Made by a program: the position numbers. From Escherichia coli (lineage in GTDB: Bacteria; Pseudomonadota; Gammaproteobacteria; Enterobacterales; Enterobacteriaceae), in assembly GCF_046105845.1 (NCBI RefSeq), contig NZ_CP151004.1: a stretch of 64,000 bases of DNA; one strand, written 5' to 3'. Below are positions 42,001-48,236 of the stretch, in pieces. Within the stretch, counting starts at the first letter, position 1. The number at the start of each line of letters is the position of its first letter.

Positions 42001-45000
42001 AGTATAGGGGTAAAACCGTGATCAAACTGAAGACGCCAAACTCTATGGAGATTGCCGGGCAACCTGCTGTTATCACTTACGTGCCAGAACTGAATGCATT
42101 TCGTGGCAAATTCCTGGGCTTGTCAGGTTATTGTGATTTTGTCTCTGACAGCATTCAGGGGCTGCAAAAAGAAGGGGAGCTTTCCCTGCGAGAGTATCTT
42201 GAGGATTGTAAAGCTGCGGGTATTGAGCCGTATGCGCGTACAGAAAAGATTAAGACTTTTACATTACGCTATCCAGAATCGCTGAGTGAACGCCTTACTA
42301 ATGCGGCTGCGCAGCAACAAGTCTCTGTAAATACTTATATTATTGAAACGCTAAATGAGCGTTTGAATCATTTATAACTTATAGCGGCCCAACAATTTCT
42401 GTTGCGCCGCTATATTTTTGTGGCTCTTAAGATGCCTTTCTAATCAACCGATGCCCCTCATTCATCATCAGGATTTTGCTATACACATCTTCCTCGACGG
42501 CGTTTTTTGCTGATGCCATCACTCGTGCCAGATTCGCCTCGTTGTGATTATTCACATACGCTTTGCCGACGGCGGTGATAAACGCTTTGCGCAGATCGCT
42601 GGCGATATTTACTTTAGCGACGTGATAATTAACAAAGCTGCGCAATATCTCCGGGGCGATACCGGAGCCGCCGTGAATAACCAACGGCACCGGACAGACT
42701 TCGGCAATGCGCTTCAGCAAGGGGATATCGATCCGCGGTATATCGTCCAGACCATGAACGTTACCAATAGAAACTGCCAGCATGTCGCAACCGGTGCGCT
42801 CGACAAAGGTCTTCACCTTTTCCGGTTCCGTTTTGCAATCGGCTTCGCTGACGTGATCATCTTCTTTGCCGAGAATCGCCCCCAGCTCCGCTTCAACCGG
42901 TACGCCATAGGATTTACAGAAATCGACAGCTTCCTGGGTGAAAGCGATATTCTCTTCAAAAGAGAATGCGGCACCGTCAATCATGACCGAGGTAAAGCCC
43001 GCGCGCACCGCCTGTTTAACATCCTCCTGAGTTTTCCCGTGATCCAGATGAAGACTGACCGGAACATCCATTTTATCGGCGTGACGTTTCACGATTTCAT
43101 AAATGTAATCGTATCCCGAGAGTTGTGCATTGGTGGGCGCAATCTGAATGAAGTTGGGTAATCCTGAACGCTCAATGGCGTTTAAAATTGAAATCGTCGT
43201 CTCCAGATTGGTGGTATTAAACGCGCCCGCTAATACCCGTTTTTCCTGAATGCGGTCGAGCAGTATCCGTCCATTAACTAATGGCATTTGAAAACCTCAT
43301 CTTTTAATATCAGTTAATTATTCAGCTTCACCGAAGCGGTCACGAAATAAGGCGGTGAGAGTTTGTATTGCCTCATTTTCATCATCGCCTTCGCAGCGTA
43401 TTTCCACCGTTTTACCGCCTTTTATTCCGGCGCGCATAATATTCATCATGCTGGTGGCATTAATATCATTACCCTCATAATGCAGCGTCACTTTACAGCT
43501 AAACTTTTTGGCGGCTTTTACCAGACAAGCCGCCGGACGTGCATGCAGGCCAGTACTGTTTCTGACCTCCACGGTTTTACTCAACATAGTGCTCCTCCCG
43601 ATGGTGTAATGGCATCACGCCTTCTTGCTGTAATTTCAACTGATACCAGCTTTTCCATTTGTGCTGATAACGCTGTAATTGATGGTATCTCGCCCGATTC
43701 GGTAACAAACGTTGGGCTATGGTAACTTGCGGCGGTGGAATATCCGGTGCGGCAGTTAATAATGCTCCGACAGAAACCGCCTCGTTAAATGCAATTGCCT
43801 CAACCGGACGCTGTAAAATATCCGCCTTTAATTGCAGCCAAAGGGGATTATGGGTTGCCGGGCCGATTACTTTTAACGCGCTGGTGCCAGGCACATTAAA
43901 ACAGGCGAAGCAGTTGGCAAATTCCATGGTTAATCCCAGTGAGACGCTGGCAATTAACATGTCAATATTTAACGTATCGCTAAGCCCATAAAATAATCCA
44001 CGGGTATGGCGATTTTTATAGGGCGAACCCGAACCGCGAAGATGTGGAATAAAGAGGGGAATGTCATCGAGCGACCAGTTCCCCGCCAGGTAATCCGCAT
44101 GTCCGCGAGTAAGTGATGCGGCGATCTCCTCATCGGTTAGCCGGAACGTGTTACGCAGCCACTCCAGAGCGAAACCGCCCACGGGCAGCGACGCAAACAG
44201 GGTGAACTGGTTTGCAAGCGAATAACAGCCGTTTGCCAGCTTGTCACGTTTGGCCTGTTCATCCAGCGTCGGTTGTGTATCCAGTTGCAGAATGCCTTCT
44301 GTGGTCCCCGTCGAGTTAAGGATATCGCCCGGCATCATCTGCAACGCCCGTGCACCCACCATATGGTCATGTCCGGCCAGCGTCACGCTGACCGGTTGCG
44401 AGAACCCAAGCGTTTTGCAGAGCGACTCGCTGACCCATCCGGCGTGTTCGCCTGGCTGCACCAATGGCGCAAATGCTGAACAGGGAACGTGTAACAACGC
44501 CGCCGCTTTCGCTGACCATTCGCCTTTGCGCACGTCCAGACACAGCGTGCGGCTGGCTAAGGTGATATCCGTGCGCTGTTCGCCGGTCAGCCGCCAGAGC
44601 AGTACTTCCGGCGCATGTAGCCAACGCAGGCCGCGGCGATTACGCAGTGGGTAATGTTCCAGCAACCAACGCATTTTGAAGGCAGAGTAATTGCTGTGCA
44701 GCGGTAACCCGCAAATGTCATAAAGTGCCGCACTGTCTGCCTCGCTAAGTGTAGCCAGATACTCTTCACCGCGACGGTCATACCAGGCCAGCATTGGCGT
44801 CAGGATCTCGCCATGCTCGTCAAGGAACACGCCTGACTCGCCAAAACTGGCAATGCTTATCCGCCTGACTGGCAGCGGCGAAGCGGCGTTCAGTTGCGCT
44901 ATCGCCTGGCGGACCTCCTGCCAGAGGGCGTCGATATCGAAATCGACATCGCCCTGTGGGGAGATCTGTTTTGCCGTCACGAATTTATGCGCGCCCAACG

Positions 45001-48000
45001 TCGTTGCGTCCAGGCAGGAAAAGCAGGTGACTTTGCAATTGGTGGTGCCAATATCGATAACGATAGCTGCGCTGTTATCAGGCATAAACCGTGCTCCGCG
45101 TCATTCGGAAAATACCATACAGTACCAGGGCGATAACCGGCACCAGACCAATGGCGATGAGATTGCCGTTGAAGATTTCCAGCAGCCAGAAGCGGAACGG
45201 GTTACCGCCATCAAGGAAACTGGAGACCTGGCCGCTGGAGCCTTCGGCAAATTTGAAATTAACGTCTTTCGCCATTCCGGTAATAAACGGCGCGATTTTA
45301 GTCGCAATCCACAGATCGGCAATAATCACCGGGATCGCCGCCAGAACGGTGCGGAAAATGTTGCCACGGCTGGCTAAAGCAATCATCGACGCCATTACCG
45401 CCAGGTTGGCAAGGTCGCCAAGCGGCAGGACTTCATTACCCGGAAGGACAAACGCGATAAAGACCGAGATTGGCGTCAGCAGCAGGGCGGTGGAGATAAT
45501 CGCCGGGTTACCTACGGCAACGGCGATATCCAGGCCGATATAGAGATCGTCACGGTCAGGGTATTTGGCATTGAGATACTTTTTAATGGCTTCAGACAGC
45601 GGTAATAAACCTTCCATCAGGATGCGTACCATGCGTGGCAGGATGAACATCACACCGCCAATGCTGATGCCAAGCAGCAAGACTTTTTTGAAATCGTATC
45701 CGGCAATTACGCCGAGCAGAATGCCCAGAATAGTACCAACCATCATCGGTTCGCCGAATATGCCAAACTTTTTCTGTACGGTTTCCGGATCGATATGAAT
45801 ACGATTGAGGCCGGGGATATGGTCGATGATTTTGTCGACCAGCAGACCGACCGGAAAGAACACCACCGAAGAGAGCGTCGGCAATGAGATCCCTTCCAGG
45901 CCAAAGTATTTTTGTACCAGTGGCGCAGACCAGTCGGCGAGTTTAAGTACTACCACCGCAGCAATCGCCGCCGCCAGTAAACCAAAAAACAGGCTGCCGG
46001 TGCTGTAATAAACCAGCGTACCAGCAAGGGCAAAATGCCAGTAGTTCCACATATCTACATCAACGGTGCGGGTTTTATTTAACGCCAGCATCGCCACGTT
46101 AATCAGAATAGTCAGGGGAATAACAAACGGGGCAATTGGCGAACCCCATGTAATAGCGGAAAGCGGCGGCCAGCCTAAATCCACCACCGGTAAATTAATT
46201 CCGGTGCGTTCAACCATCGCCTGGGCCGCTGGCCCGACATTGCTGGTAAGAATATCGAAAATGGCATAAATACCGACAAAACCAATGCCGACCGTTAATG
46301 ACGAACGTAAGGCTTTAGCGGGTTTTACTTTAAAACAGAGAGCAAGAATAAATAACACCAACGGCAACATTACCGTGGGACCAAATCCCAATATATATTG
46401 CACTATATTATAGAGGGTATGCGCGATATCGTTCATAATAAACCTCTTTTTCAGGCGAGAGCGCACCTCGCGTTAGCGCCTGATGGAGTGGGTTGAAATT
46501 AATTATTATTAATTACTTTTTAAGGATCGAAACAATTTGCGCCAGTACTTTCTCTTCGCCAATACCGGTAATAATCGGCAAGCCGTTAACCACCGGGACG
46601 TCGAGTTCATAAGGCACTTTAGTCGTTGAGACTACCAGTGCTACGCCATCAGTATTTCCAGGTAAAGAGGCAACGTTGGTTTGGGAATAATTGACGTTAA
46701 GACCGTGCTCTTTACAATATTCCATGACTTTTTCTGTTACCGCCGTGGATGTGGCAATACCCGTGGCGCAGACAAATAAAATGGTTTGACTCATATTTCA
46801 CCTCGTTCTTTCATTTTGTTTAAGATTACTGTGTGTATTTCTGTTGTTTCCATCGTAAGCAGGGCGCGCATAAAGGGCGTATCCTGAATCATCTCCATAA
46901 TCCAGCCCAGGGCATTTAATTGTTTATTACTTTCGCTTAAGGCGAGCAAAAAAATCACCCTGACAGGTACGGGGTCAGGATCGCCGCCCATATCGGCAAA
47001 CTCTACCGGTTCCGGCAGGATGCCGACGGCAATTGCATTGTGCCTGACATGTTTATGGTCCGTGTGCGGAATGGCGACACACGGTGGTTCGGTAGGCAGC
47101 CCCGTTGGGTACGTCGCCTCACGTTTCAGTACGTGATCGGCAAAATCAGGGACCACCAGCTCGGCGGCAACCAACGGTTGCGCTAACTGACGGATGATCT
47201 GTTCAACGCTTAACCCTGCCGGAAGTCGTTGAATATAATTTTCCTGAAACTGTATGCCTTGCATTTTATTCCTCTTAAAAAAGTGTACTTAACTCACTTC
47301 CCGCCGTTGCAGCACGGTGCCCAGATAATATTTATTTCCTTTTAACCAGACGTTGCCAAACTCAACGGGTAACTCTCGGGAGAAAAAGACTAACTGCTCC
47401 AGATGCAAAACGGGTGCATCTTCACTGATATCTAAAAAATGACCGCGTTCATTACCAATTAATCGCGCGGCATAGCGACTTTCAGAGTAACGAATTTTTC
47501 TTTGCGACAAACTTTCTATTGTTGGAAATAAATTGTGTTGATTAAAATCGATTTCCACGATGCCGGGACATAGCTCAATATTGATACGGTTCTCTATCAG
47601 CATCGCTTTTTCATCACCAATTGAACGTAACCGCTCAAGGTAAAGAATATCCTGACCGGGCGTTATTCTTAATTTCTCTGCCACATAACGATTAGCCGGT
47701 TCAATCCGTGACGTAATAACTTCAGTGGTAAAGTGTATTTTCTGGCTTTCCAGCGATTCCGCGAATGACAATAATCCTTCACCTAACGGATATGCCACGT
47801 TCTCTTTTTTGACAAATGTTCCCTTCCCCTGGACCTGAATCAACACGCCTTCTTTTACCAGTTGGGCGACCGCTTTTTTAACGGTTCCCCGACTCACTTC
47901 CAGCATATCCATAATCTGGTATTCCGAAGGAATGCGATCGTCTTCCACCAGATCCCCGGTATAAATACTTTCTCTTATCCACTCCACCACTTGTTGATAG

Positions 48001-48236
48001 AGCGGTATTTGTGACGACTTACTTAATGATTTCATGGCGCGCACCTGAACATTTACAGTTGTCTATGGACAATCATGGACAACTTCAAGCGTATAGTAGG
48101 TGAACGGGAGAAAAAGAGGATCGAAGCGTCTCACATTTTGAGGGACCAAATCGTGATCAAAAAAATGTGACGTGAGTCGATATTTGTCAGAAGTTTACTG
48201 CGCCGTAAGGAAATAACGGCGCGTTGGTAGGTGTTA

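Follow-up and report, generated by a model that had tools for sequence, protein, structure and literature searches.

An Escherichia coli phosphotransferase system operon with an FGGY-family kinase and a separate aldolase subfamily: a candidate two-phosphorylation route for a 2-ketose

A 64,000-nucleotide stretch of Escherichia coli DNA (contig NZ_CP151004.1 of assembly GCF_046105845.1; hereafter the window) carries on its minus strand an operon of seven intact genes (42427-48035) that encode a GntR/UTRA repressor, the EIIA, EIIB and EIIC components of a galactitol (Gat) family phosphotransferase system (PTS), an FGGY-family kinase, a paralogue of the phosphocarrier HPr and a class II aldolase. 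Taken together, the evidence inclines us modestly toward reading it as a self-contained, horizontally acquired operon for a 2-ketose, most likely a hexulose or heptulose of 3S configuration other than D-fructose or D-tagatose, which would be phosphorylated twice, by the PTS and then by the kinase, before cleavage by the aldolase. The operon is an uncharacterised variant of the fructose/tagatose theme of PTS, kinase and aldolase, in which the kinase is a non-homologous FGGY enzyme, the aldolase is of a separate subfamily and an HPr is encoded in the operon itself. Its genes are the following (DHAP, dihydroxyacetone phosphate).

47289-48035, minus strand: first gene, GntR/HutC-type regulator with a UTRA effector domain, 248 aa (Pfam GntR 8e-16, UTRA 2e-26)
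46791-47264, minus strand: PTS EIIA of the PTS_EIIA_2 type, 157 aa, with phosphorylatable His67 in the motif AIPH
46513-46794, minus strand: PTS EIIB, 93 aa, with catalytic Cys9
45078-46436, minus strand: PTS EIIC of the galactitol (Gat) family, 452 aa (Pfam EIIC-GAT PF03611, 1.1e-91)
43577-45085, minus strand: FGGY-family carbohydrate kinase of a rare, distinct subfamily, 502 aa, with motifs GHDHM, NSTGTTE, IPHLRGSG and IG[P/A]A..N
43318-43587, minus strand: HPr-family phosphocarrier paralogue, 89 aa, with His15 and Ser46 read from the translation
42427-43287, minus strand: class II (Zn) DHAP-dependent aldolase of the NF005943/PRK07998 subfamily, 286 aa (NF005943 556.6 bits against a cut-off of 364)

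Related clusters across four phyla

Relatives of the kinase were retrieved with the exact, subfamily-specific peptides GHDHM[VA]G[AS] and [LIV]LNSTGTTE from 100,044 species, each represented by one genome; at least 96 relatives were found, a lower bound because an exact match was required. The census sample, 83 non-redundant loci from four phyla, was annotated with BLASTP, using the proteins of the window and a small number of further references. Kinase orthologues with 60-79% identity occur in many Enterobacterales, and relatives with 32-40% identity occur in Firmicutes, Negativicutes, Coriobacteriia, Actinobacteria and Gilliamella. The kinase gene adjoins that of an NF005943-type aldolase in 82 of the 83 loci, the remaining one ending at a contig edge.

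Three types of cluster were distinguished. Type A, found at 44 loci (E. coli, Salmonella, Klebsiella, Enterococcus, Listeria, Pectinatus, Selenomonas, Collinsella and others), lacks a dehydrogenase and is made up of the genes for the regulator, EIIA, EIIB, EIIC, kinase and aldolase. The same genes recur in type B, found at 23 loci (Pantoea, Erwinia, Raoultella, Serratia, Gilliamella, Bacillaceae and Staphylococcus), together with either one or two Zn-dependent dehydrogenases, of which one is GatD-like (238 bits with the galactitol-1-phosphate 5-dehydrogenase model). Type C (16 actinobacterial loci) has no PTS and combines the aldolase and the subfamily kinase with an XylB-like FGGY kinase, a Zn-dehydrogenase and either a polyol-type transporter of the major facilitator superfamily (RbtT/DalT family) or a transporter of the ATP-binding cassette (ABC) type; a third FGGY paralogue is often present. 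No further conserved enzyme family was found in any cluster type among the 83 loci.

A second kinase is absent from all 67 PTS-type loci, and an XylB-like kinase is present in all 16 loci without a PTS. Because the two are perfectly complementary over the 83 loci, we conclude that, judged by gene content, the PTS and a distal-carbon (omega-type) kinase are interchangeable and that two phosphorylations precede the aldolase. This independently supports the original prediction of a second phosphorylation that feeds a ketose-bisphosphate-type aldolase, the bisphosphate step being its best-supported form, short of proof. XylB phosphorylates the distal carbon of its substrate, and the GatD-like dehydrogenases of type B would convert a polyol phosphate to a ketose omega-phosphate. 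One role, that of a 1-kinase of a ketose omega-phosphate, would thus fit the subfamily kinase in all three types if its substrate is supplied by the XylB-like kinase in type C, by the PTS in type A, and by the PTS together with the GatD-like enzyme in type B.

Some clusters hold additional genes. A gene for a SurE-like nucleotidase/phosphatase, puzzling in a pathway that spends two phosphates, follows the HPr gene in many enterobacterial type B clusters (census loci L006/L041, L049, L050, L053, L073, L074, L080, L081). In Enterococcus raffinosus, malodoratus and avium (L034, L035, L036, ∼11800-20500) a second related cluster lies directly downstream of the type A cluster and encodes an NF005943-type aldolase (51% identical; 425 bits), a Mga/PRD-type regulator, a Zn-dehydrogenase and an XylB-like FGGY kinase (355 bits). 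The third FGGY paralogue of many type C clusters (L078 13047-14390; L048, L062, L064, L067, L083-L085, L088) has a GGHDHP motif and is ∼24% identical to the subfamily kinase.

Proposed pathway and substrate

From gene content, selection, conserved residues, motifs and co-occurrence, all of which were observed directly, we infer the chemical steps, their regiochemistry and the substrate as follows. Phosphoryl groups would flow from enzyme I (EI) through the operon's HPr paralogue to His67 of EIIA and Cys9 of EIIB. The Gat-family EIIC would import the sugar and phosphorylate it at a terminal carbon, probably at the distal (omega) end, in keeping with the action of this family on polyol termini. 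Translation of the FGGY kinase gene is coupled to that of EIIC; the enzyme would add a second phosphate from ATP, probably at C1 beside the keto group, as do FucK and RhaB, its nearest relatives by motif. The Zn-dependent class II aldolase would split the doubly phosphorylated ketose into DHAP and an aldose phosphate, which would be glyceraldehyde-3-phosphate (G3P) from a hexulose or erythrose-4-phosphate from a heptulose.

Since type A clusters encode neither an isomerase nor a dehydrogenase, the imported compound is probably already a 2-ketose. Class II aldolases of the F_bP type yield 3S products. For the PTS types pentuloses are unlikely, because a pentulose 5-phosphate enters the pentose phosphate pathway directly; D-fructose is disfavoured because E. 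coli already has dedicated uptake routes for it, and D-tagatose is unlikely because strain Nissle 1917, in which the operon is intact, needs a separate ABC-type cluster for tagatose. Speculatively, rare hexuloses and heptuloses remain as candidates; types B and C come mostly from bacteria associated with plants or insects, and for them the corresponding polyols may be considered.

The FGGY kinase

The kinase has the two-domain architecture FGGY_N plus FGGY_C. The original prediction, which a loss of catalytic residues would have refuted, holds on this point: residues D11, G13, T14 and T15 of the N-terminal DxGTT motif are conserved, and D240, inside GHDHM, is invariant. The C-terminal nucleotide motif (residues 406-413; window 43850-43870) reads IGPA or IGAA throughout the subfamily, as against GGG in the characterised FGGY kinases compared. 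All NCBIfam equivalog models scored below their cut-offs (XylB 147/380, FucK 119/471, GlpK 129/590, RhaB 59/528, LsrK 46/528 bits), and the nearest solved structure is at most 23% identical.

A His residue precedes the catalytic Asp in GHDHM, a feature found among seven K-12 FGGY kinases only in FucK (GHDT) and RhaB (SHDT), and a neighbour-joining tree places the subfamily kinase and the third actinobacterial paralogue (GGHDHP) beside these two. The grouping with FucK and RhaB, which are ketose C1-kinases, is suggestive. FucK and RhaB phosphorylate C1 of 2-ketoses, their products go to DHAP-releasing aldolases, and fucA and rhaD were indeed seen as neighbours of the FucK and RhaB genes. In GlpK, Arg83 and Phe270 line the small glycerol pocket; because the kinase has Gly at both positions, a triose substrate is disfavoured and a larger one would fit.

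A replacement of the kinase gene in the E. coli lineage was considered, since the gene is richer in GC and is only 63% identical to that of Salmonella, against 88-90% for its neighbours. It was rejected, as the kinase gene has the highest GC content within the operon in all genera.

The aldolase

In addition to NF005943, the aldolase narrowly passed the ketose-bisphosphate aldolase subfamily model TIGR00167 (221.6 against 215.6 bits). Its best solved relative is AgaY (1gvf, 2e-48), and it is ∼40% identical to AgaY/KbaY. Cluster aldolases, 84 in number, were aligned with GatY, KbaY and YdjI. Invariant among the 84 are the catalytic Asp82, the Zn ligands His83, His178 and His205, Glu142 on the mobile loop and the residues of the DHAP-phosphate site (G206, S208, G209, N227). 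Class IIb fructose-1,6-bisphosphate aldolases bind the 6-phosphate through Ser49 and Arg259 of one protomer and Arg280 of the partner protomer (Helicobacter pylori numbering; PMC10665668), and the sulfofructose-1-phosphate aldolases, which cleave a monophosphate, have Ala in place of Arg280 (PMC10665668). Of the 84 cluster aldolases, 82 retain the Arg259 equivalent as R233 (Lys in GatY/KbaY, Cys in YdjI), and an invariant, family-specific Lys141 lies beside the catalytic Glu142.

The enzyme scored below the cut-offs of the GatY, KbaY and tagatose-1,6-bisphosphate aldolase models (NF009374 239.7/383, NF009375 182.5/542, TIGR01858 219.6/443.6), and no GatZ/KbaZ partner gene was found in the window operon or at the 83 loci, whereas in K-12 gatZ and kbaZ adjoin gatY and kbaY. 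Because it also lacks the partner-protomer Arg of the DPR motif (see below), we conclude from these comparisons that the aldolase is not a GatY/KbaY orthologue. The label "GatY/KbaY-like" that it had been given thus stands at the level of the family only, with two of the three canonical 6-phosphate ligands gone. A bisphosphate is nevertheless its probable substrate, and the pocket could suit a distal phosphate that is placed differently, for example on a longer chain, or none.

PTS proteins and the HPr paralogue

The PTS components belong to the Gat family and stay below its equivalog cut-offs. EIIA scored 57 bits with the GatA model (cut-off 139), its AIPH motif aligning with K-12 GatA; EIIB scored 60 bits with the GatB model (cut-off 95), Cys9 aligning with the GatB cysteine; and EIIC scored 476 bits with TIGR00827 (cut-off 542). 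The HPr paralogue passed TIGR01003 (105.9 against 47.9) and did not reach the equivalogs PtsH (56.5/153) and NPr (51.9/119). Within type A, an HPr gene is confined to the 20 enterobacterial loci and occurs at none of the 24 loci outside Enterobacterales (Firmicutes, Negativicutes, Coriobacteriia).

Among enterobacterial genera the HPr paralogue has diverged far more (median identity 44%) than its neighbours EIIC, EIIB and the aldolase (88-90%), and EIIA (62%) and the kinase (64%) also evolve fast. Gene order varies around it (window 43318-43587; loci L002, L012-L028): kinase-HPr-aldolase in E. coli and Citrobacter amalonaticus, the aldolase first and HPr after the kinase in Enterobacter cancerogenus and Pantoea alder81, and kinase-aldolase-HPr in Salmonella, Klebsiella and most others.

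Alternative explanations

Several points weigh against a pathway in which the kinase makes a ketose bisphosphate for the aldolase. We know of no FGGY kinase that accepts a phosphorylated sugar. The kinase has no clear placement with FucK and RhaB in profile comparisons (HMM and hhalign), where FucK scored 174, XylB 164 and RhaB 71 bits, and fold comparison does not discriminate between kinase types. In the aldolase, the Ser49 equivalent is Ala50 in 76 of the 84 cluster enzymes, and the equivalent of the partner-protomer Arg280 (DPR motif), which GatY and KbaY keep, is Ile, Ala or Val. The monophosphate-cleaving SqiA and YdjI also lack the partner-protomer Arg, and YdjI has Gly at the Ser49 position. 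An apparent conservation of the DPR Arg in a pairwise phmmer alignment was overturned by the 88-sequence alignment.

One explanation for the altered pocket is a monophosphate route in the style of liver fructose metabolism or of YdjH-YdjI, in which the PTS would yield a ketose 1-phosphate, the aldolase would release DHAP and a free aldehyde (glyceraldehyde or erythrose), and the FGGY kinase would act on the aldehyde like a triokinase. The K-12 ydj cluster is a precedent for a kinase followed by a class II aldolase acting on a 1-monophosphate; glycerol kinases are the top sequence matches of the kinase among solved structures; and the route, which also has two phosphorylations, is compatible with the complementarity of PTS and XylB-like kinase. 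It would however demand that the role of the kinase differ by type, an aldehyde kinase where there is a PTS and a ketose 1-kinase in actinobacteria. The His-Asp motif is that of ketose 1-kinases and not of GlpK; the kinase has Gly at the positions of Arg83 and Phe270 in the small-substrate pocket of GlpK; Arg233 and the invariant Lys141 are available for a distal anion; and the coupled translation of EIIC and kinase suggests the PTS product as the substrate of the kinase (the EIIC stop and kinase start overlap by 8 nt in 26 of the 44 type A loci and by any length in 37). We therefore regard this route as rather unlikely, though it is the foremost of the alternatives. Less probable still is an FGGY version of the D-tagatose/galactitol pathway, from tagatose phosphate through tagatose-1,6-bisphosphate to DHAP and G3P. 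The Gat-family PTS, the resemblance of the aldolase to AgaY/KbaY, the GatD-like dehydrogenase of type B and the same logic in tagKTH-gatYZ of Klebsiella and Salmonella (PMC9720028) all agree with it, but Nissle 1917, with the operon intact, does not grow on tagatose after deletion of its ABC-type tag cluster or of the kinase of that cluster alone (PMC9720028), and E. coli had been considered tagatose-negative (PMC9720028) although 30% of complete genomes carry the operon. Moreover, E. coli PfkA already phosphorylates tagatose-6-phosphate (PMC9720028), which would make a dedicated kinase redundant, and the aldolase fails the tagatose-bisphosphate aldolase cut-offs and has neither the DPR Arg nor a GatZ/KbaZ partner.

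The HPr paralogue might mainly regulate the FGGY kinase, by binding, as HPr does with LsrK, or by phosphorylation, as with Gram-positive GlpK, a role that would be compatible with the PTS-kinase-aldolase pathway. In the window the last 11 nt of the kinase gene are shared with the HPr gene, the LsrK-HPr complex (5ya0) is among the structural neighbours of the kinase, and 37 of the 67 PTS-type loci include an HPr gene; they belong to three or more lineages, among which are Bacillaceae with a ptsH of their own. We give this little credence: none of the 24 type A clusters outside Enterobacterales has an HPr gene, in most Enterobacterales that gene follows the aldolase and not the kinase, His15 and Ser46 are retained as in a working phosphocarrier, and dedicated HPr-like proteins such as FruB and TagH are common in enterobacterial PTS operons (PMC9720028). 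It is also conceivable that the PTS and the kinase act on different moieties, the PTS importing a glycoside or conjugate and the kinase taking a free ketose released inside the cell. The pneumococcal fucose operon, which holds a PTS and FucK with no bisphosphate intermediate, is a precedent. Such an arrangement is very improbable here, as no hydrolase, isomerase or other enzyme is conserved over the 83 loci and the PTS-less clusters replace the PTS by a kinase and not merely by another transporter.

Integrity of the operon

Seven minus-strand genes were confirmed where the original prediction had placed them, each in the family that it had named (NCBIfam, Pfam). Open reading frames do occupy the span of 42427-48044 that it gave, but the regulator most likely begins at ATG 48035 and not at GTG 48044: ATG 48035 is the start chosen by the Prokaryotic Genome Annotation Pipeline (PGAP) in strains CE10, Sakai and Nissle, and a conserved AGGTG Shine-Dalgarno sequence lies 7 nt upstream of it. 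EIIC most likely starts at 46436 (452 aa), which matches the PGAP annotation in other strains. The tight packing by overlaps of 4-8 bp holds in part. Overlaps occur at three junctions (EIIA/EIIB 4 nt, EIIC/kinase 8 nt, kinase/HPr 11 nt), and the other three are gaps (regulator-EIIA 24 nt, EIIB-EIIC 46-76 nt, HPr-aldolase 30 nt). Because all seven genes equal those of O157 Sakai in length, with ratios of nonsynonymous to synonymous substitution (dN/dS) of 0.00-0.15, we conclude that they are intact and under purifying selection; the EIIC proteins are 100% identical. The aldolase gene and hicB converge, and the 49 nt between their stop codons contain one further element.

42380-42414, no strand assigned: hairpin with a minimum free energy of −27.2 kcal/mol, z = −6.1 against shuffles

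This hairpin, which has a U-tract on the hicB (plus-strand) side, is probably the transcript end or a bidirectional terminator.

Regulatory region

Regulatory elements were sought by phylogenetic footprinting of 17 enterobacterial loci with unrelated flanks, which gave three candidates upstream of the regulator gene.

48120-48135, minus strand: CRP-like site TGTGA-N6-TCGAT, with the TGTGA half-site at the same position in the 17 loci
48093-48098, minus strand: predicted −10 hexamer TACTAT (TATCAT or TATTAT in other genera), conserved in position, with a predicted start near 48086
48059-48083, minus strand: putative operator of the HutC-subfamily type, half-site GTTGTCCAT followed by the palindrome TTGTCCATAGACAA, near-invariant in the 17 loci and just past the predicted start

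The centre of the CRP-like site lies ∼41.5 bp upstream of the predicted transcription start, a class II geometry. The putative palindrome, TTGTC(C/T)ATAGACAA, is of the GT..AC type of GntR/HutC repressors and lies 3′ of the predicted −10; TTGTCCATAGACAA occurs once in the 64-kb window. Generic consensus scans for promoters and terminators stayed at background level and did not pick up the predicted −10, as is expected of an activator-dependent promoter. The layout suggests a catabolite-repressed, substrate-induced, autoregulated operon, in which the GntR/UTRA repressor would bind the TTGTCCATAGACAA operator until freed by a phosphorylated intermediate and CRP would activate the promoter. The regulator itself matched the NCBIfam models of the HutC, PhnF and TreR types below threshold only.

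Distribution, genomic site and literature

A megablast search with the operon alone as query found it in 1637 of 5426 complete E. coli genomes (∼30%), with at least 80% of its length in 1635. It is always chromosomal and is single-copy in all carriers but one. "Partial" matches in 3122 genomes, obtained with a longer query, were due to its nikR and hicB flanks and disappeared with the operon-only query. Carriers include O157:H7 (Sakai ECs4349-4355), S88 (K1), ST131, the mouse commensal MP1 and Nissle 1917. In the window the operon is flanked by nikABCDE-nikR on one side and hicAB-yhhJ-rbbA on the other, in an E. coli-like chromosome, and its GC content (43-54%) is lower than that of the flanks (55-56%). 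Because K-12, which lacks the operon, holds rhsB-yhhH-yrhC-yhhI at the same site, we conclude that the nikR-yhhJ interval (window 41675-48233) is a hotspot that can hold different cargo. Between the operon and yhhJ lies a type II toxin-antitoxin pair, hicA/hicB (41791-42377, plus strand); since it is also present in CE10 and O157 Sakai and is missing from Nissle 1917, where the aldolase gene faces yhhJ directly, it is a separate variable insertion.

The Salmonella orthologue is the STM3779-3785 island, which adjoins uhp. Desai et al. (2013) described it as "a complete PTS with unknown specificity" (PMC3604774), acquired by the ancestor of Salmonella subspecies I and repressed by H-NS (PMC3604774), and in a study of 2024 it still stands among the "Unknown sugars" (PMC11000858). 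We found no characterisation of the operon in open-access full texts, searches with the STM3779-85 and ECs4349-55 tags included, although a report available by subscription only is possible; those locus tags returned incidental mentions or statements of unknown function only. None of the specifically named NCBIfam models ties the operon to a characterised pathway, and the PGAP product names of its genes are generic only. The suggestion that the pathway may be uncharacterised was therefore borne out as far as the searchable literature and the specific models reach, and a close match of the whole operon to a characterised pathway was looked for and not found.

Four leads from the literature were set aside. 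The vpe carbohydrate-permease operon of uropathogenic E. coli sits on the deoK island, and the D-tagatose cluster of Nissle, with an ABC transporter and a sugar kinase, lies between accC and yhdT, so that both are other loci. A study of adaptive evolution on tagatose (PMC10101011) concerns fruBKA and aga, and a paper on sulfoglycolysis that mentions FGGY and tagatose (PMC11968277) is about DUF4867 neighbourhoods; neither bears on the operon.

In the Sakai annotation (ECs_4353, ECs_4355; locus L097 16868-19527) the kinase is named "fucK / L-fuculokinase" and the aldolase "gatY", and both proteins fail the curated cut-offs; the L-fuculokinase label also appears in some PGAP records. Given the NCBIfam scores for FucK (119 against 471) and RhaB (59 against 528), we conclude that "fucK" is, by this measure, a misnomer in O157 Sakai.

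Other features of the window

Two tandem copies of the AgrB antisense small RNA (Rfam RF02891; 108 and 100 bits) are present at 19147-19230 and 19381-19464 on the minus strand. A shuA/chuA 5′ untranslated region RNA thermometer (RF02597, 60 bits; 8874-8905, plus strand) lies directly upstream of a 660-aa open reading frame at 8903-10885, presumably the haem receptor gene chuA, which is typical of pathogenic E. coli lineages.

Comparison with known systems and significance

The closest parallels in logic are fruBKA with FbaA and tagKTH-gatYZ, in which a sugar-specific EII, served by a dedicated HPr-like carrier, forms a ketose phosphate that a kinase converts to the bisphosphate, from which a class II aldolase releases DHAP and G3P (PMC9720028). 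As the original prediction had noted, an FGGY kinase is atypical of such routes: FruK and TagK are of the PfkB type. The present operon also differs in its Gat-family EII with separate A, B and C proteins, its GntR/UTRA regulator, and an NF005943-subfamily aldolase that has an altered distal-phosphate pocket and no GatZ-like partner. The gatYZABCD operon of E. coli likewise has a Gat-family EIIA/B/C and a class II aldolase, and GatD-like enzymes occur in the type B relatives; here, however, EIIA, EIIB and EIIC score below the galactitol equivalog cut-offs, gatD and gatZ are absent, and an FGGY kinase is encoded in the operon itself, where the gat pathway uses the housekeeping PfkA for 1-phosphorylation.

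FucK/FucA and RhaB/RhaD similarly pair an FGGY kinase that has the His-Asp motif with a DHAP-releasing aldolase, but they act on free 6-deoxy-ketoses delivered by symporters, with no PTS, and their aldolases are AraD-like class II enzymes, unrelated, that yield 3R products. YdjH/YdjI of K-12 and SqiK/SqiA of the sulfo-EMP2 pathway share a class II F_bP_aldolase-family enzyme without the partner-protomer Arg and a kinase in one catabolic cluster; their kinases are of the PfkB (YdjH, SF kinase PF00294) or PfkA type (PF00365), uptake is non-PTS, and the substrates of YdjI and SqiA carry one phosphate and a carboxylate or sulfonate, YdjI having Cys where the cluster aldolases keep Arg233. The autoinducer-2 kinase LsrK, which is inhibited by HPr, differs from the kinase (46 of 528 bits with its model) and lies in an operon with an ABC transporter, a class I-type thiolase and no HPr gene.

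A bolder reading, which we put forward tentatively and with less confidence than the general pathway, is that the kinase is the first FGGY enzyme to act on a sugar phosphate, a ketose omega-phosphate 1-kinase, and that with a new aldolase subfamily whose distal pocket is rebuilt (Lys141/Arg233) it defines a new pathway for a rare ketose or polyol. Examples of its substrates may be heptuloses (mannoheptulose, sedoheptulose) or heptitols. If this is true, the pathway exists in PTS, PTS-plus-dehydrogenase and kinase-only versions over four phyla, the known chemistry of the FGGY family would be extended, and O157:H7, ST131, Nissle and Salmonella subspecies I would gain a nutrient that K-12 cannot use.

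The module as defined here, by GHDHM, NSTGTTE, the NF005943 aldolase and three cluster types, can be recognised in any genome, which makes "fucK" and "gatY" mis-annotations fixable, and the aldolase subfamily is of possible use in biocatalysis. The operon is among the few complete PTS operons of E. coli and Salmonella left without an assigned sugar, and it occurs in major pathogenic lineages and in the probiotic Nissle while being absent from K-12, in which most sugar metabolism was worked out. Knowledge of its substrate would bring into models of gut colonisation a nutrient that defines a niche.

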